Source: a virus
Lineage: Duplodnaviria > Heunggongvirae > Uroviricota > Caudoviricetes
Length of the DNA stretch: 40,110 bases
Strand: one strand, 5' to 3'
Virus record (IMG/VR): IMGVR_UViG_2897369580_000002
This document shows positions 5,725 to 35,149 of this stretch, piece by piece. Numbering within the stretch: position 1 is the stretch's first letter; each line of letters starts with the position of its first letter. Below the pieces are notes generated by a model. The model was given only the letters and a program-made list of their open reading frames with translations, was not told the DNA's origin and searched no databases. The position numbers and the translations under genes are program-made.

Positions 5725-5741
5725 ATTACCTTTCAGGTAAT
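5725..5741. promoter_or_regulatory. palindrome ATTACC-N5-GGTAAT (TTACC-N5-GGTAA family, copy 1)
   Basis: ATTACCTTTCAGGTAAT, perfect 6-bp arms; in divergent region between tailspike and the LexA-box gene. Confidence 0.6.
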
Positions 5742-5777
5742 TTGCAAAACGTGCTGGATAGCAAACAAATTATTTGC

Positions 5778-5797
5778 TACTGTATAAATATACAGTT
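5778..5797. promoter_or_regulatory. LexA (SOS) box
   Basis: TACTGTATAAATATACAGTT: CTGT-N8(AT-rich)-ACAG, near-consensus; about 20 bp upstream of the RBS of the 5818 gene. Confidence 0.75.
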
Positions 5798-5817
5798 ATT
5801 GCATGGAGAAGATTAAG

Positions 5818-6075
5818 ATGCAGCAGTATCACTATCCACTGGAAGAGGGATTTACCGAAAGGATTCACACGCCGGGAGGCGTCAGGTCACTGGTGGAGGG
5901 ATCGCACTTGATGAAATTACTCCGGGATCTCGATAAGGATGGATTTAATGTCGATGGCCCACTTGCCGAACTGACTGCACTGATTAACTACGTCACCAGC
6001 TCACAGATGTCTATGCAGGATCTGCAAACACATCTCGACTATTGTGCCGAACAATTACGAAAACAAACCAGATAA
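5818..6075 (+). CDS. small protein homologous to the C-terminal domain of the adjacent antirepressor
   Basis: ATG at 5818 with RBS GGAGAA (alternative ATG at 5803); aligns with the C-terminus of the 6391-7086 product (LMKLLRDLDKDGFNVDGPLAELT vs LMNLLNQLQEDGHDVSGAAAELT; DLQTH vs DIQTH). Confidence 0.6.
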   Translation: MQQYHYPLEEGFTERIHTPGGVRSLVEGSHLMKLLRDLDKDGFNVDGPLAELTALINYVTSSQMSMQDLQTHLDYCAEQLRKQTR

Positions 6076-6106
6076 GGTTTGCAATCACCAAATGGAGTGC
6101 TTATAT

Positions 6107-6121
6107 TTACCTTTGCGGTAA
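6107..6121. promoter_or_regulatory. palindrome TTACC-N5-GGTAA (copy 2)
   Basis: TTTACCTTTGCGGTAAA at 6106-6122. Confidence 0.55.
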
Positions 6122-6390
6122 ATTTACAACGCACTCCTCTTGTGCCATAGTAATCGAGCACTGGCAAAATCCAGTGCCGGGATTGGCGTCCCGGATTACT
6201 AAAAGGCGCATTCACCGCGCAAGCGGTTTTTTTATGCGTATAGCACGGCCACATTCGTATTATGGTGGGCTGTGTGGGGGCACCGAAAGGTGCGCCGGGT
6301 CCTTTTAGCCGGTTACGCCAACCCTGCACAGTTCACCACCAACCGATTGGCGTCGGTAGTGGTGATTAACCAGACTAAAAGGTAACCACT

Positions 6391-7086
6391 ATGACAGCTA
6401 CAAAAAGCACGTCCATTTTTTCTTTCGAATCCCAAGCCGATATACGGGTAATCGTCATTAATGGTGAGCCATGGTTTATCGCTTCAGATGTTTGTCGGGC
6501 TATAGGCATAGCAAACCATCGAGATGCTGTTCGAAAACTTGATGATGATGAGAAGGGCGTCGCTTCAACCGACACCCCTGGCGGTGAGCAAGAATCGATC
6601 ATCATCTCCGAGTCAGGCCTCTACACACTGATCCTCCGCTGCCGCGACGCAGTGACACCAGGCACTATCCCCTACCGCTTTCGTAAATGGGTTACAGGTG
6701 AGGTTCTTCCTCAGATCCGCCGCACCGGAAGTTACATTAAAAACTCGCTCCCGCAGGAAGAACGCATAAAGATGGTTGCCGACCAGGTAGCCAACGCCAC
6801 GGCGTCAGCAGTAATGCAGGCGATGAAGATAGAGAACAAAACCTACAGTGCCCCACTGAAGCCCGGCTACCGCAGCCTGATTCATTCGCCGTCTGGTGTT
6901 CTCGGCCTGACGGAGAACTCACTGCTGATGAATCTGCTGAACCAGTTACAGGAAGACGGGCACGATGTATCGGGCGCGGCGGCGGAGCTGACCACCATGT
7001 TCTGCTACATCGTCGGTGTGAGCAAATGCCTGCGTGATATCCAGACCCACGCGGAGTACATCAACGACAAAGCAGGATTCTTCTGA
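6391..7086 (+). CDS. Bro-N domain antirepressor (Ant-like)
   Basis: N-terminal Bro-N signature (FSFESQADIRVIVINGEPWFIASDVCRAIG); RBS AAGGTAACC; C-terminal domain shared with the upstream small protein. Confidence 0.75.
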   Translation: MTATKSTSIFSFESQADIRVIVINGEPWFIASDVCRAIGIANHRDAVRKLDDDEKGVASTDTPGGEQESIIISESGLYTLILRCRDAVTPGTIPYRFRKWVTGEVLPQIRRTGSYIKNSLPQEERIKMVADQVANATASAVMQAMKIENKTYSAPLKPGYRSLIHSPSGVLGLTENSLLMNLLNQLQEDGHDVSGAAAELTTMFCYIVGVSKCLRDIQTHAEYINDKAGFF

Positions 7087-7158: not shown

Positions 7159-7173
7159 TTACCTTAAAGGTAA
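7159..7173. promoter_or_regulatory. palindrome TTACC-N5-GGTAA (copy 3)
   Basis: ATTACCTTAAAGGTAAA at 7158-7174, upstream of the 7216 gene. Confidence 0.55.
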
Positions 7174-19838: not shown

Positions 19839-20161
19839 CACTCACCTCCGTTACCGTACAGAGTTTCAGCCGCTGATTTTTCTACATCCCCGGAAACAGG
19901 AGCGATCGCCATATCAGTGATCTGCAGATCGGCGCTGCGATTAACGCCATCGTCAGTTTCTCTGGCAGACAGGCCTCGGATAACAGCCTTTGCAGTTATC
20001 ATCACTTCTGTTCCGACGCCCTGAGGTTGCGCCTTCAGCTTATTCAATGTGTCGTTATTCAGCGTGATGCACAGCCCCCACGGGTATTCATCGCGAGTTC
20101 TGGTTTCTCCGCTCTCATCCTGGTAGCTGTCAGTGCCGGTTTTGAGGTTTACGAGTTCCAT
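19838..20161 (-). CDS. small virion-module protein
   Basis: ATG at 20161 with RBS AGGAG (ORF-track start at 20167 is GTG). Confidence 0.45.
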   Translation of the reverse strand: MELVNLKTGTDSYQDESGETRTRDEYPWGLCITLNNDTLNKLKAQPQGVGTEVMITAKAVIRGLSARETDDGVNRSADLQITDMAIAPVSGDVEKSAAETLYGNGGE

Positions 20162-25029: not shown

Positions 25030-25044
25030 TTACCTTTCAGGTAA
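25030..25044. promoter_or_regulatory. palindrome TTACC-N5-GGTAA (copy 4)
   Basis: ATTACCTTTCAGGTAAC at 25029-25045; TTGACA hexamer at 25008-25013 just upstream. Confidence 0.55.
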
Positions 25045-25366: not shown

Positions 25367-25443
25367 GTGGTATTAGCTCAGTTGGACAGAGCAACCGCCT
25401 TCTAAGCGGTTGGTCGCAGGTTCGAATCCTGCATGCCACGCCA
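25367..25443 (+). tRNA. tRNA-Arg (anticodon TCT), phage-encoded
   Basis: Hand-folded cloverleaf: acceptor GTGGTAT/ATGCCAC, D-arm GCTC..GAGC, anticodon stem ACCGC/GCGGT with loop CTTCTAA, T-arm GCAGG-TTCGAAT-CCTGC, discriminator G, encoded CCA. Confidence 0.9.
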
Positions 25444-27579: not shown

Positions 27580-28172
27580 TGATTACCATCCTGACGTTCT
27601 TTGAGTCGCTTCCTGGCTGCTGCTATGCGATCAGCAATTGTCACATTCACATTAACATCCAGACGTTCTTTGAACGCGTTGACATCAACATGCTTACCAA
27701 TCAGCTCAAGGTTCTTCACCTTGTCAGGCCATTTAATTTTTTTGAGGATTGTCTCTATCGAATCCTCGTTCATGTTCATGATGGTCGATGACAGATCAAA
27801 GCCACTAAGCGTAGTGCGCCAGATTTTCGGCCACTCACGGATTGGTTTAAGGCTCCCATCGTCGTTGAGGATGTCGATCACGTCCATCTGGTCGATCTCC
27901 ACCAGGCGCATGAGAACGTAATCAGCACTGACGCGCATTCGTTTGTTGCGCTCCTCCATCAACTCGGCAATCCGTTTTTGAATGCGTTCATCGCGCATCA
28001 TGACGCTGGCTTTAACTGCCGCTGTATTTGGGGAGAATCCTGCGTTAATCGCTGCCTGAGTCTGGTTTTCAGGCGTTTTGATGTATGACTGGCAATAAGC
28101 CTCCTGCATTGCTGTTAGTGGCTTAAATTGCGTTGATTTGCGTTTATAGGTTTTAGGTTCAGCAGGCATCAT
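27576..28172 (-). CDS. terminase small subunit
   Basis: Small-terminase-like helix-turn-helix region (AMQEAYCQSYIK...QTQAAINAGFSPNTAAVKAS); start placed at internal ATGATG (28172/28169) because the ORF-track N-terminal 32 codons are encoded by palindromic GGTAATAGTTACC repeats; alternative start 28268. Confidence 0.7.
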   Translation of the reverse strand: MMPAEPKTYKRKSTQFKPLTAMQEAYCQSYIKTPENQTQAAINAGFSPNTAAVKASVMMRDERIQKRIAELMEERNKRMRVSADYVLMRLVEIDQMDVIDILNDDGSLKPIREWPKIWRTTLSGFDLSSTIMNMNEDSIETILKKIKWPDKVKNLELIGKHVDVNAFKERLDVNVNVTIADRIAAARKRLKERQDGNQ

Positions 28173-28189
28173 AACCACCGTGGTAATAG

Positions 28190-28204
28190 TTACCGTTTTG
28201 GTAA
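28190..28204. promoter_or_regulatory. palindrome TTACC-N5-GGTAA (copy 5) within nested GGTAATAGT(T)ACC repeats
   Basis: GTTACCGTTTTGGTAAT at 28189-28205; flanked by GGTAATAGTTACC (28182-28194) and GGTAATAGTACC (28200-28211). Confidence 0.5.
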
Positions 28205-31516: not shown

Positions 31517-31531
31517 TTACCTCTGAGGTAA
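31517..31531. promoter_or_regulatory. palindrome TTACC-N5-GGTAA (copy 6)
   Basis: TTTACCTCTGAGGTAAT at 31516-31532, 4 nt upstream of the DUF1064 start codon (one arm doubles as Shine-Dalgarno). Confidence 0.55.
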
Positions 31532-31578: not shown

Positions 31579-31593
31579 TTACCTAACAGGTAA
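31579..31593. promoter_or_regulatory. palindrome TTACC-N5-GGTAA (copy 7)
   Basis: ATTACCTAACAGGTAAT at 31578-31594, perfect 6-bp arms. Confidence 0.6.
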
Positions 31594-33219: not shown

Positions 33220-33420
33220 TCAGCTTGAGTGTTGTGGGGAGGAATTAATCATGATCTGCTTAATCTCTGCCCTGATGCGACGGTTTGATTCCATGGTGCA
33301 CTCAACACAGTGTCCGTTGTAAACCCAGCGTTCACTGTCATGTCCGTGCTTACATGGTTTTCCGGTGTAGTAGCGTTTAAGTCCGCGCTTTGCGGCATCA
33401 ATACGTGTAATGATTTCCAT
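33220..33420 (-). CDS. small protein with Cys/His motif (CKHGH...CVEC)
   Basis: Probable ATG at 33420 (MEIITRIDAAKRG...); ORF-track start 33483 adds a hydrophobic extension; between Cro-like and O-like genes. Confidence 0.4.
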   Translation of the reverse strand: MEIITRIDAAKRGLKRYYTGKPCKHGHDSERWVYNGHCVECTMESNRRIRAEIKQIMINSSPQHSS

Positions 33421-33500
33421 GGTAAGCCCTGTTATTAGTATTGGGATTACGGTTATTTTGTGCTGACACAAAAAAAAGATCAACCATATTTGGTTTTTTA

Positions 33501-33515
33501 TTACCTTTAAGGTGC
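33501..33515. promoter_or_regulatory. degenerate TTACC-N5-GGTGC palindrome (copy 8)
   Basis: ATTACCTTTAAGGTGCG at 33500-33516; right arm GGTGC instead of GGTAA. Confidence 0.4.
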
Positions 33516-33570
33516 GAATAGATATGAAAAGACCGCCGGGTGGCGGTCTACAGAGGGGTGTAGCTGGATA

Positions 33571-33801
33571 TCATGAGTAGAAGAAGTATGCCAGTTCTGC
33601 TTTTGAGCGCAACCATTGTCTTGTTTTACAGGCTTTAAAAAGCCCATTCATCAATACTTTACCTGGCATTTTGCGCTTACCTGTTAAGTGAGTCTGGATA
33701 TAGTGACTCGTCGTTCCGGCTTCCTGTGCGAAGGCTTCACGCTCATCCGGAGTAAGTGCAAGCCAGTGCTTTTTGAAATCGAAATGTCCGTTATCGCTCA
33801 T
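33571..33801 (-). CDS. Cro-like small HTH regulator (first gene of rightward/early-replication operon)
   Basis: 76 aa, divergent from the repressor gene; HTH-like segment EAFAQEAGTTSHYIQTHLTG. Confidence 0.5.
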   Translation of the reverse strand: MSDNGHFDFKKHWLALTPDEREAFAQEAGTTSHYIQTHLTGKRKMPGKVLMNGLFKACKTRQWLRSKAELAYFFYS

Positions 33802-33813
33802 AGCTATTGCCTG

Positions 33814-33837
33814 ATATTTATTTCAGATAATAAATAT
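33814..33837. promoter_or_regulatory. AT-rich inverted repeat in the immunity-region divergent promoter
   Basis: ATATTTATT-tcagat-AATAAATAT, perfect 9-bp arms. Confidence 0.5.
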
Positions 33838-33868
33838 TCACCCATAAGGTAACAAAAATCAAGGATAG

Positions 33869-33883
33869 TTACCTATGAGGTGC
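33869..33883. promoter_or_regulatory. degenerate TTACC-N5-GGTGC palindrome (copy 9)
   Basis: GTTACCTATGAGGTGCA at 33868-33884. Confidence 0.4.
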
Positions 33884-33885
33884 AT

Positions 33886-33900
33886 TTACCCGTTGGGTAA
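33886..33900. promoter_or_regulatory. palindrome TTACC-N5-GGTAA (copy 10)
   Basis: TTTACCCGTTGGGTAAT at 33885-33901, between divergent Cro-like and repressor genes. Confidence 0.55.
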
Positions 33901-33955
33901 TATTGCTTTAAATTGAATCATCTACTGATTCATATATGAGGCGATTTTCCAGAAA

Positions 33956-34540
33956 ATGAAAAGTATCCAGGACGTCCGCAGGCAAAATCTCAACGACTTG
34001 ATCGACCGTGAATTCAATGGTGTTCAGACGCGGATGGCAGAAAAACTTGGAACTCAGGCAAATCTGGTAAACCGCTGGGCTCTTGGCAAGAAGGTTATCG
34101 GCGACCAGGTTGCGCGAAAAATTGAAGCTGCCGCCAATAAACCACGTAACTGGCTTGATATCGATCGCTCGCTTTCTCAGGAAGGTTTTCAGCCTGTCGG
34201 CCCAAGCGACATTGGTCAGCTGGCGGCTCACAACCTGGAACGCTGGATGAGCGAAAGCCGCGACCTTTCAACACAGGGAAAACTTCACCGCGCATCCGGC
34301 GTCGCCCAGGTGACAATCAGCCGCCTGTTAAACAATGAGGTCAGCGTTTCCATTTCCACCCTGGAGAATGTTGCATCCGCATTCGGGCGTCACGGCTATG
34401 AATTACTGATTCACCCGCACGACCCTGCGACCATCAACTATGACCGCTCGCGCTACGCATTGTTACCCGAAACCGAGAAAGCAAAGATCGAAAGTTATAT
34501 TGAATTTGTCATCAACCAGAACGAAAAAAACAAACAATAA
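33956..34540 (+). CDS. prophage repressor candidate with tandem HTH domains, no autocleavage domain
   Basis: Two HTH-like regions (QTRMAEKLGTQANLVNRWALGKK and GKLHRASGVAQVTISRLLNNEVSVS); no Ala-Gly / Ser-Lys peptidase S24 signature seen; own terminator. Confidence 0.55.
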   Translation: MKSIQDVRRQNLNDLIDREFNGVQTRMAEKLGTQANLVNRWALGKKVIGDQVARKIEAAANKPRNWLDIDRSLSQEGFQPVGPSDIGQLAAHNLERWMSESRDLSTQGKLHRASGVAQVTISRLLNNEVSVSISTLENVASAFGRHGYELLIHPHDPATINYDRSRYALLPETEKAKIESYIEFVINQNEKNKQ

Positions 34541-34560
34541 AATCATACTTTTCAGTAAGT

Positions 34561-34586
34561 AAGCCGCCTTCTGGCGGCTTTTTTAT
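34561..34586 (+). terminator. rho-independent terminator after repressor gene
   Basis: AAGCCGCC-ttct-GGCGGCTT followed by TTTTATT. Confidence 0.8.
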
Positions 34587-34597
34587 TGCCTATACTA

Positions 34598-34612
34598 TTA
34601 CCTAATAGGTAA
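34598..34612. promoter_or_regulatory. palindrome TTACC-N5-GGTAA (copy 11)
   Basis: ATTACCTAATAGGTAAT at 34597-34613, perfect 6-bp arms. Confidence 0.6.
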
Positions 34613-34632
34613 TTTTTTTTAACTCATATCTA

Positions 34633-34659
34633 TTGACATCAAACCAAATACGCATAATT
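34633..34659 (+). promoter_or_regulatory. sigma70-like early-left promoter
   Basis: TTGACA (34633-34638), 15-16 bp spacer, CATAAT/ATAATT (34654-34660); operator-like palindrome begins at 34660. Confidence 0.55.
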
Positions 34660-34660
34660 A

Positions 34661-34675
34661 TTACCTCAACGGTAA
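34661..34675. promoter_or_regulatory. palindrome TTACC-N5-GGTAA (copy 12), overlapping early-left promoter -10/+1
   Basis: ATTACCTCAACGGTAAC at 34660-34676. Confidence 0.6.
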
Positions 34676-34694
34676 CAGACCGAGGTAACAAGTT

Positions 34695-34847
34695 ATGCAG
34701 TGGAAAATCATCAACGGTTGGTACTGCGTTACTGCATGCGGATTCATGAGCTGGAAGTTCCGCACCTTACAGGAAGGCATTAAGTGGGCTTTCGTCAGCA
34801 AAGAAGCTCGCGATGTGGCCAACGATAACGAGATATGGGAGGGCTGA
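34695..34847 (+). CDS. small Trp/Cys-rich peptide, first gene of early-left operon (Kil-like candidate)
   Basis: ATG with RBS GAGGTAACAAGTT; 50 aa; stop 3 nt before next start. Confidence 0.45.
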   Translation: MQWKIINGWYCVTACGFMSWKFRTLQEGIKWAFVSKEARDVANDNEIWEG

Positions 34848-34849
34848 TA

Positions 34850-35149
34850 ATGAACGTTAATCAGCAGAAAAATCTTCAAAAAATCATGCTGGCATTCGAC
34901 AAGGACTACCGCCTGTCAGAACAGCTATATGACCGACAAGTTGAACTGATCGAGAGCATCCGGCTTCATCAACTGGCCTCAACTTTTGACGCTGTAACAG
35001 GCAAAGGAGTTCGCCAGGAAGTGCTGGAGGCAGCTAAAGACAGCCATGAGTTCGAAGAACTTATGGATGCCTACCGGCGCGAGGCAATGGCAATTATCGC
35101 CCGCTGGGATCTGGCGGATCGGATTGATGGGCAGAGGGAAGCGGCATGA
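34850..35149 (+). CDS. hypothetical early protein
   Basis: ATG at 34850 with strong RBS GGGAGGG (ORF-track start 34835 lacks an RBS); 99 aa. Confidence 0.55.
   Translation: MNVNQQKNLQKIMLAFDKDYRLSEQLYDRQVELIESIRLHQLASTFDAVTGKGVRQEVLEAAKDSHEFEELMDAYRREAMAIIARWDLADRIDGQREAA

Follow-up and report, generated by a model that had tools for sequence, protein, structure and literature searches.

The region between positions 33802 and 34676 of the window (the whole stretch of 40,110 nucleotides that was analysed) raises the question of whether one or two DNA-binding specificities act in its immunity switch. The initial annotation described a temperate-phage switch with divergent Cro-like and repressor genes, and proposed that an AT-rich palindrome and a set of TTACC-type dyads form two operator classes, read either by the repressor (Rep) and the Cro-like protein or by two HTH domains of Rep. 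The switch and its divergent genes are present as described. The window shares 98% DNA identity with phiV10, ZX5 and others (98-99% with phiV10 / ZX5 in the region 33400-34900) and, judging from its sequence, is a phiV10-like (Uetakevirus) E. coli prophage with its lysis-lysogeny control at 33802-34676. The corresponding gene pairs, phiV10 gp40/gp41 and vB_EcoP_ZX5 ORF21/ORF4, are essentially the same element; the operators are unmapped in the phiV10 and ZX5 papers and records, and in the words of the ZX5 paper the mechanism 'remains to be unraveled' (PMC9782041).

The Cro-like gene lies on the minus strand (33571-33801) and encodes a 76-aa HTH regulator, a homologue of phiV10 gp41 and epsilon15 gp39, which matches PHROG 35 'transcriptional repressor' (E 5.6e-13), has no match in Pfam, PDB or NCBIfam, and is 76% identical to SPC32H_042 with an identical HTH. 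An intrinsic terminator follows it directly on the same strand (33530-33549; terminator scan) and is annotated in the phiV10 record. The gene appears to open the rightward (here minus-strand) early operon, and its Cro function is inferred from position alone. On the plus strand, rep (33956-34540) has its own terminator, as had been proposed, which consists of a hairpin at 34561-34580 and a T-run (34561-34587, plus strand) and is also annotated in the phiV10 record. The separate early-left promoter and operator that had been postulated beyond it were likewise recovered: a promoter scan places PL on the plus strand at 34633-34661 (TTGACA at 34633-34638, a 17-bp spacer and AATTAT at 34656-34661; 10/12 consensus match), and a perfect TTACC-N5-GGTAA dyad, OL1 (TTACCTCAACGGTAA, 34661-34675), overlaps the PL -10/+1 region. 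The motif scan added a second perfect dyad, OL2 (TTACCTAATAGGTAA, 34598-34612), overlooked by the initial annotation, which starts 63 bp upstream of OL1 and is centred at about -63 from the PL start. An extra GGTAAC half-site is found at 34684-34689 near OL1.

Between the divergent genes, the two TTACC-type dyads noted earlier at 33869 and 33886 hold in the motif scan as OR2 (TTACCTATGAGGTGC, 33869-33883; 2 mismatches to TTACC-N5-GGTAA) and OR3 (TTACCCGTTGGGTAA, 33886-33900; perfect), 17 bp apart, a spacing also present in SPC32H and epsilon15. A third and previously overlooked dyad, OR1 (TCACCCATAAGGTAA, 33838-33852; 1 mismatch), lies within the predicted PR and has the same position in all relatives compared. 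PR itself (33827-33862, minus strand) has two options by consensus matches only, TTGTTA (33855-33850)-17-TATTAT (33832-33827) and TTGATT (33862-33857)-18-AATATT (33838-33833); PR and PRM are thus placed by consensus guess, and either -10 is mutated in one relative or another. A 13-nt repeat at PR and PL, CTCATAnCTATTG, was considered as a second motif and dropped, as it is not conserved in SPC32H.

The dyad is dispersed over the phage. Ten perfect copies are present in the 40 kb window vs ~0.04 expected (4^-10 per position), all of them outside the ORFs or annotated genes checked, and at <=2 mismatches there are 41 matches vs 10.5 +/- 3 in shuffles. Apart from OR3, OL1 and OL2, perfect dyads are located at 5726-5740, ~40 bp ahead of the ant LexA box, where SPC32H has an equivalent at 20013 and epsilon15 has one at 19896 that its record labels as a repressor site; at 6107-6121, over the -10/+1 region of a plus-strand promoter (TTGCAA-17-TATATT; 6079-6121 with the dyad); at 7159-7173, after the Bro-N antirepressor gene and before the accessory genes that follow it; and at 25030-25044, in the interval that separates the head genes from a tRNA gene (25367-25440), where the equivalent is annotated at 2931-2947 in epsilon15. 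Two dyads 18 bp apart, at 28172 (1 mismatch) and 28190 (perfect), abut the minus-strand terS start codon (28172-28204); this pair is conserved in phiV10, Tyrion and epsilon15, and its first member is an annotated repressor site in epsilon15. Another perfect pair with OL-like geometry, 62 bp apart (31517-31531 and 31579-31593), lies between the replication genes and a DUF1064 gene, and it recurs with this spacing in phiV10, Tyrion, SPC32H and epsilon15. Overall, these four phages share the motif, its positions and its spacings, and in the GenBank record of epsilon15, 7 sites with ATTACC-N5-GGTAAT bear the annotation 'protein_bind: repressor', the equivalents of the OL sites among them. When promoters were sought by consensus at each dyad, only PL and the promoter at 6079 were convincing and the others were weak.

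Natural variation indicates that the half-sites are constrained. Among 44 natural OR haplotypes, 6 positions vary in 33838-33900, and every one of them falls within the 15 spacer positions (P ~7e-5 by C(15,6)/C(63,6)): the sole natural SNP of OR1, the SNPs of OR2 (33874-33876 and 33878) and that of OR3 (33891) are all in spacers. OL2 varies in its spacer and flanks, and the OL pattern resembles that of OR except for singleton variants in the GG of OL1. Between clades the half-sites are invariant and do not co-vary, while the spacers differ. The TTACC half-site and the Rep recognition helix NLVNRW (alignment) are both common to the phiV10, epsilon15/SPC32H and Klebsiella clades; distant Rep homologues with the N-terminal domain only (Hydrogenovibrio, Paraburkholderia) differ in their helices and lack clear dyads. 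The Cro-like HTH (AGTTSHYIQ-HLT) is invariant across the same three clades and as conserved as the Rep helix, so that by conservation alone the dyads fit binding by Rep, by the Cro-like protein or by both, as in lambda. The dyads might be sites of the Cro-like protein only, or they might be small RNA hairpins or terminators, the one at 33886 having been flagged as terminator-like in a simple scan. However, a stem of 5 bp whose loop varies and which shows no compensatory changes does not make a terminator, and the sites overlap promoter -10/+1 regions. The epsilon15 record gives the motif to the repressor, SPC32H Rep is reported on palindromic sites (PMC9638917), and Rep overexpression shuts down lysis-gene transcription (PMC9782041), which makes it extremely unlikely that Rep does not act through these sites. 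As far as sequence can tell, the TTACC-N5-GGTAA dyads are real Rep operators.

The same repressor is found in 13 phages: it is 100% identical to phiV10 gp40 and ZX5 ORF21, and in an IMG/VR scan used for SNP mapping it was identical in all 80 loci. Rep aligns in full length with chain A of PDB 5D50 (phmmer E 4e-42, query 1-190 to chain 2-197), and its residues 89-190 are covered by a match to PDB 5D4Z; both entries belong to the Rep-Ant switch of Salmonella phage SPC32H. It is only 42% identical to SPC32H Rep, with a conserved N-terminal helix and a diverged middle domain, and a single-sequence AlphaFold model had a mean pLDDT of 44.9. Only HTH families were matched in Pfam, PHROGs and NCBIfam, with no Peptidase_S24, and the C-terminal S24 peptidase with a cleavage site that marks lambda-type CI was not found in Rep. 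Therefore, the earlier reading of Rep as a repressor without an autocleavage domain is upheld with regard to its sequence, and its homologue SPC32H Rep is, according to a review, among the repressors inhibited by an antirepressor via protein-protein interaction (PMC7380047). The SPC32H Rep that binds palindromic DNA is a tetramer, which an Ant tetramer takes apart (PMC9638917). In the ZX5 study, overexpression of the same repressor blocked lytic / lysis-gene transcription (PMC9782041).

Pfam gives HTH signals in both halves of Rep, the second being an HTH_3 match at residues 106-147, in line with the suggestion of two DNA specificities within one protein. The C-terminal half, however, aligns with the oligomerisation domains of SPC32H Rep, and the second HTH_3 region maps within the tetramer construct Rep(92-198) of 5D4Z. 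In SPC32H Rep the N-terminal domain is the sole DNA-binding domain, the middle domain serves dimerisation, and a tetramerisation/Ant-binding domain follows (PMC9986798). By this homology, Rep would consist of an N-terminal HTH DNA-binding domain, an HTH-like middle dimerisation domain and a C-terminal tetramerisation/Ant-binding domain. The suggestion is not supported for the second HTH, which aligns with what is given as the dimerisation domain of a solved homologue.

Induction appears to be explained by elements elsewhere in the window, namely a LexA box with an Ant homologue and a second, C4/isrK-RNA-gated Bro-N antirepressor. Immediately upstream of ant lies a consensus LexA box, TACTGTATAAATATACAGTT (5778-5797; perfect CTGT-N8-ACAG), whose core CTGTATAAATATACAG (5780-5795) ends 8 nt before the first ATG at 5803; with a matrix of 23 E. 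coli LexA boxes, it is the best match in the window (27.5 bits vs 10.4 for the next). The ant gene (5818-6075, plus strand) encodes a small antirepressor of 85 aa if translation starts at the ATG at 5818, preceded by GGAG, or of 90 aa if it starts at 5803. Ant matches chain E of PDB 5D50, 'Anti-repressor protein' (E 1.7e-47), and is 89% identical to SPC32H Ant, against only 42% for Rep and its SPC32H counterpart; the Ant-Rep pairing in this phage is assumed.

The second antirepressor module is driven by the promoter at 6079-6121 and, like ant, lies outside 33802-34676. On the plus strand it comprises a full-length isrK-like RNA (6158-6233; Rfam RF01394, 77.9 bits) with a terminator at its end, a full-length C4-type antisense RNA (6258-6343; Rfam RF01695, 77.7 bits) and the antirepressor gene (6391-7086). 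The product has a Bro-N domain and an Ant-like C-terminal domain, matches PHROG 130 'anti-repressor Ant' (E 4e-63), and its C-terminus is 42% identical to Ant. In C4, the loop sequence CCUUUUAG is the complement of CUAAAAGG, which covers the RBS (6375-6382; 8-nt perfect match), and its ACGCCAA is complementary to 6347-6353 (7-nt match). Overexpression of the ZX5 Bro-N antirepressor promotes lytic growth (PMC9782041).

The AT-rich 9-bp inverted repeat is present where it had been annotated, at 33814-33837: sequence reading and a pattern search gave ATATTTATT-N6-AATAAATAT (33814-33822 and 33829-33837), with 0 mismatches in the inner 7+7 positions, overlapping the predicted PR -10 (TATTAT, 33832-33827) and the start region. 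Its departure from chance is marginal, as a perfect 9-bp inverted repeat arose in ~2% of Markov-1 simulations (P ~0.02) in a post hoc test on copies of the 154-bp region with spacers of 0-12 bp. No second copy beyond chance is present in the window at <=3 mismatches (2 matches vs 1.2 expected); the other match is in the tailspike gene, and OL is without a copy. The palindrome occurs in the phiV10 clade only and is absent from the epsilon15, SPC32H and Klebsiella clades; at its position the Klebsiella phages have TTAGTCC-c-GGACTAA and epsilon15 has ATTCA-N4-TGAAT. Within the phiV10 clade its arms hold 4 of 5 variable positions, each of which breaks the symmetry and none of which is compensatory, and in Tyrion, BUCT554, L009 and L010 only 7-8 of 9 positions remain symmetrical.

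A second operator class at this place would be sensible in that the repeat shares the divergent region with the dyads, covers the predicted PR -10/start and, together with the rest of the 36 bp that separate OR1 from the start of cro, is invariant in the 44 natural haplotypes and well conserved in Tyrion. Neither the Rep nor the Cro-like specificity tracks the palindrome, however, because both recognition helices are invariant across clades while the palindrome is confined to one. With the second HTH-like region of Rep placed in its dimerisation domain, the symmetry lost by uncompensated substitutions in relatives, and a single copy of marginal significance that has no counterpart at OL, it is very unlikely that Rep and the Cro-like protein, or two HTHs of Rep, read two operator classes; this part of the initial annotation is not supported. 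The AT-rich repeat is probably AT-rich core-promoter or 5'-leader sequence of PR and not a second-specificity operator, although the cro-OR1 stretch may have some function beyond a bare promoter.

One such function would be a site for another factor of the phiV10 clade, such as the Bro-N domain or a nucleoid protein of the host, or a hairpin formed by the leader of the cro mRNA. The conservation of the region within the clade is consistent with this, as are the different small palindromes that sister clades bear at the same place; moreover, phiV10 and Tyrion have both the repeat and the Bro-N antirepressor, while epsilon15 and SPC32H have neither. That co-occurrence amounts to one phylogenetic event, though, and the decay of the symmetry in four relatives and the single copy in the phage speak against a dedicated site. 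A hairpin in the cro leader RNA was rejected, since the fold is no better than that of shuffles (z -1.27) and the repeat plays no part in the minimum-energy fold. Overall, a site for another factor is unlikely, and it is somewhat less likely again that the palindrome is specifically the operator of a third, clade-specific protein such as the Bro-N domain, with a P1-immI-like module layered onto an SPC32H-type switch. If true, a Rep-repressed, C4/isrK-gated Bro-N-Ant fusion would remove Rep from the DNA and also have a direct action at PR, giving a feed-forward lock on induction. A direct SOS response of PR was also considered, as CTG-N10-CAG (33811-33826) overlaps the repeat over the PR start with the correct 16-bp spacing and an AT-rich centre. 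As a LexA box it was rejected: its match to CTGT-N8-ACAG is far below that of functional boxes (0.16 bits, heterology index ~20.6, rank 101 in the window vs 12-27 bits for known boxes), and it is not present in SPC32H or epsilon15, so that the probability of a weak box here is practically negligible.

The closest known system is the SPC32H Rep-Ant lytic switch, reportedly described by Kim & Ryu (2013, J Virol) and Kim et al. (2016, PNAS). Both phages have the same gene order, a full-length homologous Rep without an autocleavage domain, a small Ant homologue with a LexA box before its gene, and palindromic operators at the early promoters. TTACC-N5-GGTAA is found in both at OR (3 sites with 30/31 and 17 bp spacing), at OL, before ant, at terS and as the pair after the replication genes; that this is the SPC32H operator sequence is taken from the epsilon15 annotation and the comparative analysis here. 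The window phage differs in its Bro-N-fused second antirepressor behind isrK/C4-type RNAs, in having two dyads at OL where SPC32H has three, and in the cro-OR1 sequence with its AT-rich repeat. In epsilon15 (AY150271.2; repressor gp38) the sites annotated as (A)TTACC-N5-GGTAA(T) are dispersed over the genome in the same manner, i.e. at the terS end, upstream of the head operon, upstream of gp19/ant, three times at OL and in the post-replication region, whereas its OR sites are present but unannotated, its repressor is 42% identical and the Bro-N/C4 module is lacking.

In lambda, CI and Cro act at OR1-3 and OL1-3, with divergent PR/PRM and the repressor gene between OR and OL. The window phage likewise has three dyad operators in the divergent PR/PRM region, rep between OR and OL, operators over PL and, likely, multi-site cooperative binding. 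It departs from lambda in that Rep is without the S24 domain and would oligomerise via the HTH-like middle and a p53-like tetramerisation domain, that induction would proceed by antirepressor, and that operators are also found at late and accessory units. The second module recalls P1 immI, which consists of the c4 antisense RNA, icd and ant, and isrK-anrP of Gifsy-1: C4-family and isrK-family RNAs lie directly upstream of the antirepressor gene, C4 has two complementary sites, one of them the RBS in the translation start region, and the promoter is under the main repressor's operator. As a difference, no icd-like leader ORF is listed in the 47 nt between the end of C4 (6343) and the antirepressor ATG (6391), and the antirepressor is a Bro-N/SPC32H-Ant-like fusion.

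From the sequence features, homologies, conservation and constraint patterns observed, we infer binding, promoter start sites, looping and a feedback step as follows. Rep would bind the TTACC-N5-GGTAA dyads via its N-terminal HTH, as suggested by homology and sequence, and its middle HTH-like and C-terminal domains would assemble a tetramer with two DNA-binding pairs. Such a tetramer fits the conserved site pairs of 17-18 bp (OR2/OR3, terS) and 62-63 bp (OL, post-replication), the latter being about six helical turns. Since OR1 is inside PR and OL1 is over the PL -10/+1 region, bound Rep would shut both early operons, while OR2/OR3 beside rep presumably serve its autoregulation. Dyads also precede ant, the second antirepressor, the tRNA/accessory unit, terS and the post-replication genes, which suggests that Rep represses transcription throughout the phage. 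Upon DNA damage, by homology, LexA would leave the box at 5778-5797 and Ant would be made and take the non-cleavable Rep off the DNA; removal of Rep would also derepress the promoter of the C4-RNA-gated Bro-N antirepressor. Altogether, OR, rep, its terminator and OL/PL very probably form a central immunity switch that works like SPC32H Rep-Ant.

A non-cleavable repressor, TTACC-N5-GGTAA operators and a LexA-controlled antirepressor make up an already solved system; the locus repeats this characterised immunity system in almost textbook form, in a family with a crystal structure, and its discovery value is little. Its value lies in annotation: the epsilon15/SPC32H operator motif can be transferred to the phiV10 group, where operators are unmapped in published work, the second "HTH" of Rep is not to be taken for another DNA-binding specificity, and the SOS input is placed at the distant LexA-ant cassette, ~28 kb off in the prophage map. 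The ~14 Rep sites across the phage, paired at fixed distances of 17-18 bp and 62-63 bp, and the stacked antirepressor modules extend known biology and would offer a handy test bed for tetramer and looping models. The phiV10-type locus is carried by 560 of 5426 complete E. coli genomes (~10%).

The segment at 33400-34900 is 97-99% identical over its full length by megablast to Escherichia phages phiV10, vB_EcoP_ZX5, PAS61, TL-2011b and others, about 77% identical to Enterobacter phages Tyrion and BUCT554, and is carried by 560 of 5426 complete E. coli genomes. phiV10 is also collinear with the whole window, in reverse orientation. Therefore, judged by identity and collinearity, the window is an almost complete phiV10-like prophage (genus Uetakevirus, epsilon15-like). 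Its 194-aa repressor (Rep) is 100% identical to the repressors of phiV10 and ZX5 and to those in eleven further phage records. When overexpressed, the ZX5 repressor eliminated free phage and reduced the transcripts of endolysin and holin by >99.9%, the lytic cycle was favoured by the Bro-N antirepressor of ZX5, and the operators were left unmapped in that study (PMC9782041). In the GenBank record of epsilon15, seven dispersed ATTACC-N5-GGTAAT sites carry the label 'protein_bind: repressor'. Since the immunity locus is shared with published phages and the operator motif stands in public annotation, the finding is already known.

Each feature of the switch region in the initial annotation is present where it had been placed, as read directly from the sequence. 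The repressor ORF (33956-34540, plus strand) is followed, as claimed, by its own terminator (34561-34580 and a T-run), and a divergent 76-aa ORF, the Cro-like gene, lies on the minus strand (33571-33801). The early-left operon has its separate promoter and operator, a predicted PL-like promoter TTGACA-17-AATTAT at 34633-34661 overlapped by a dyad at 34661-34675 (OL1). Pattern search recovered the two TTACC dyads already noticed, OR2 (33869-33883, TTACCTATGAGGTGC) and the perfect copy OR3 (33886-33900, TTACCCGTTGGGTAA); the operator list was incomplete, as OR1 (33838-33852, TCACCCATAAGGTAA), inside the predicted promoter PR, and OL2 (34598-34612, TTACCTAATAGGTAA), 63 bp upstream of the PL operator, had been overlooked. 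A 13-nt direct repeat (CTCATAGCTATTG / CTCATATCTATTG) occurs at the cro start codon (33797-33809) and at the PL -35 (34623-34635); Tyrion keeps it and SPC32H does not, and the related TCATATCTATTC is found after the cro terminator, at about 33517-33528 on the minus strand.

The perfect dyad, TTACC-N5-GGTAA, occurs ten times in the window (5726, 6107, 7159, 25030, 28190, 31517, 31579, 33886, 34598, and 34661), where about 0.04 copies are expected, with near-copies at 28172, 33838, 33869, and 33501. With up to two mismatches allowed, there are 41 dyads as against 10.5 +/- 3 in shuffles, and in an unbiased census of all 5-mer dyads the TTACC dyad ranks first in the window, in phiV10 (eight perfect copies), and in SPC32H (ten). 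The perfect copies and near-copies all lie outside the ORFs or annotated genes checked, being placed at OR and OL and ahead of ant, a second antirepressor, accessory genes, a tRNA, terS, and post-replication genes. Their positions and spacings are kept in phiV10, Tyrion, SPC32H, and epsilon15: pairs 17-18 bp apart are found at OR2/OR3 and, except in SPC32H, at terS, and pairs 62-63 bp apart at OL and after the replication genes in all four phages. These fixed spacings suggest that a Rep tetramer may bind both adjacent and looped sites. Both terS dyads (28172/28190) abut the terS start codon. Downstream of the dyad at 25030 is the tRNA gene (25367-25440, plus strand, Rfam 71 bits), matched in SPC32H by a tRNA-Arg in the corresponding position. 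An 11-bp insertion at the upstream OL site of Tyrion (L002, 3700-3730) places one more TTACC half-site a helical turn ahead of the dyad (TTACCTGACAATTACCCCACAGGTAA).

Across four clades (14 OR regions), the half-sites are fixed and the 5-bp spacers freely variable. Among 80 IMG/VR loci, all with identical Rep, 44 distinct OR haplotypes vary within 33838-33900 at six positions (33843, 33874-76, 33878, and 33891), all six among the 15 spacer positions and none among the 30 half-site positions (P ~7e-5 by C(15,6)/C(63,6)). The OL pattern is similar, save for singleton variants in the GG of OL1. As judged from these alignments, the dyad half-sites appear to be under selection. The recognition helix NLVNRW, invariant in the repressors of phiV10, Tyrion, BUCT554, Klebsiella phages, epsilon15, and SPC32H, matches the invariant TTACC half-site.

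Rep appears to be non-cleavable, as had been proposed, since a Pfam search found no S24 peptidase in it, and it does not have the feature that defines autocleaving repressors of the lambda type. Its HTH_3 match at residues 106-147 is significant, and a YdaS-like match at 21-61 is sub-threshold. Residues 1-190 align with the SPC32H 'Repressor' (PDB 5D50 chain A; E 4e-42) and residues 89-190 with 5D4Z, the Rep(92-198) tetramer construct. According to one secondary source, SPC32H Rep binds DNA through an N-terminal domain, dimerises through a middle one, and tetramerises and binds Ant through a C-terminal one (PMC9986798); a second states that tetrameric SPC32H Rep binds palindromic sites with DNA-binding pairs drawn from different dimers and is disassembled by tetrameric Ant (PMC9638917). 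Because the 106-147 match falls in the middle-domain region, the claimed second HTH corresponds, by alignment, to the dimerisation domain of this solved homologue; of the tandem-HTH description, the two HTH-type signals hold, and a second DNA-binding domain is not supported. The sole match of the 76-aa protein is PHROG 35, 'transcriptional repressor', and it is taken as Cro by position alone. The HTH of this protein (AGTTSHYIQ-HLT) does not vary among the clades aligned (epsilon15, SPC32H, Klebsiella).

The AT-rich 9-bp inverted repeat (arms ATATTTATT, 33814-22, and AATAAATAT, 33829-37) had been regarded as a second operator class, suggesting two DNA-binding specificities. Simulating the 154-bp region under a Markov-1 model yields such a repeat in about 2% of copies, and a pattern search of the window found no other copy. 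Only 7-8 of its nine pairs remain in the four diverged phages of the phiV10 clade, and four of the five variable positions in the cro ATG-OR1 interval of same-clade members fall in its arms, none compensatory. The epsilon15/SPC32H, Klebsiella, and Scandinavium relatives have unrelated sequence in its place with the Rep helix unchanged, as is the Cro-like HTH where aligned (epsilon15, SPC32H, Klebsiella). Therefore, two specificities are highly improbable. The repeat overlaps the best predicted PR -10 (TATTAT, 33832-27) and start region. Since natural phiV10-type haplotypes show no variation in the stretch, it is, on this conservation, functional sequence, and a promoter and leader role explains the invariance sufficiently; a role as the target of another factor, clade-specific or from the host, is unlikely. 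RNA folding of the repeat is no better than that of shuffles. An overlapping CTG-N10-CAG is not credible as a LexA site by matrix score. Other small palindromes occupy the same position in sister clades, TTAGTCC-c-GGACTAA in the Klebsiella clade (L006/L011) and ATTCA-N4-TGAAT in epsilon15/SPC32H, and could reflect a recurring structural element in the cro leader or at the PR start. Further perfect inverted repeats of at least 9 bp lie at 1112-1135, 4453, 8368 (a spacer-less 18-bp palindrome inside a minus-strand accessory gene), 8620, and 10471; the window has ten register hits overall, against about 2.5 expected, several of which are nested registers of one hairpin.

The sole consensus LexA box in the window, TACTGTATAAATATACAGTT (5778-5797), lies directly before the ant ORF (5818-6075) and scores 27.5 bits, the next match reaching 10.4, with a matrix built from 23 E. 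coli boxes. Ant aligns with 5D50 chain E, 'Anti-repressor protein' (E 1.7e-47), and shares 89% identity with its SPC32H counterpart, whereas Rep is only 42% identical to SPC32H Rep, which suggests that an antirepressor/Rep C-terminal domain module may have been exchanged, or that induction may cross between phages. A perfect Rep dyad (5726) stands 40 bp upstream of the LexA box, as in SPC32H and epsilon15, and this SOS input (LexA box and ant, 5726-6075) is about 28 kb from the repressor gene. In SPC32H, Rep is reportedly uncleaved and the ant promoter LexA-controlled. Every defining feature of the SPC32H-type Rep-Ant switch that can be tested in sequence is present here.

In the proposed mechanism, for which we infer binding, looping, and start sites, a Rep tetramer would sit with its two N-terminal-domain pairs on dyad pairs. 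OR1 would lie within PR, OR2/OR3 would adjoin the rep promoter region, OL1 would cover the PL -10/+1 with OL2 six helical turns upstream, and the terS and post-replication sites would repeat the OR/OL pair geometries. Rep occupancy would silence all transcription units, which would be held apart by the terminators that follow rep and the Cro-like gene, and DNA damage would lead through LexA cleavage and Ant synthesis to Rep release.

A second antirepressor module, P1-immI-like and lacking in epsilon15 and SPC32H, occupies 6079-7086. It comprises a predicted promoter TTGCAA-17-TATATT from 6079, overlapped by the perfect Rep dyad 6107-6121, a full-length isrK-family RNA (6158-6233) with a terminator at its end, a full-length C4 antisense RNA (6258-6343), and, at 6391-7086, a gene for a Bro-N/Ant-like fusion. 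Two C4 segments have complements downstream: for the loop CCUUUUAG the RBS of the fusion gene (6375-6382), and for ACGCCAA positions 6347-6353.
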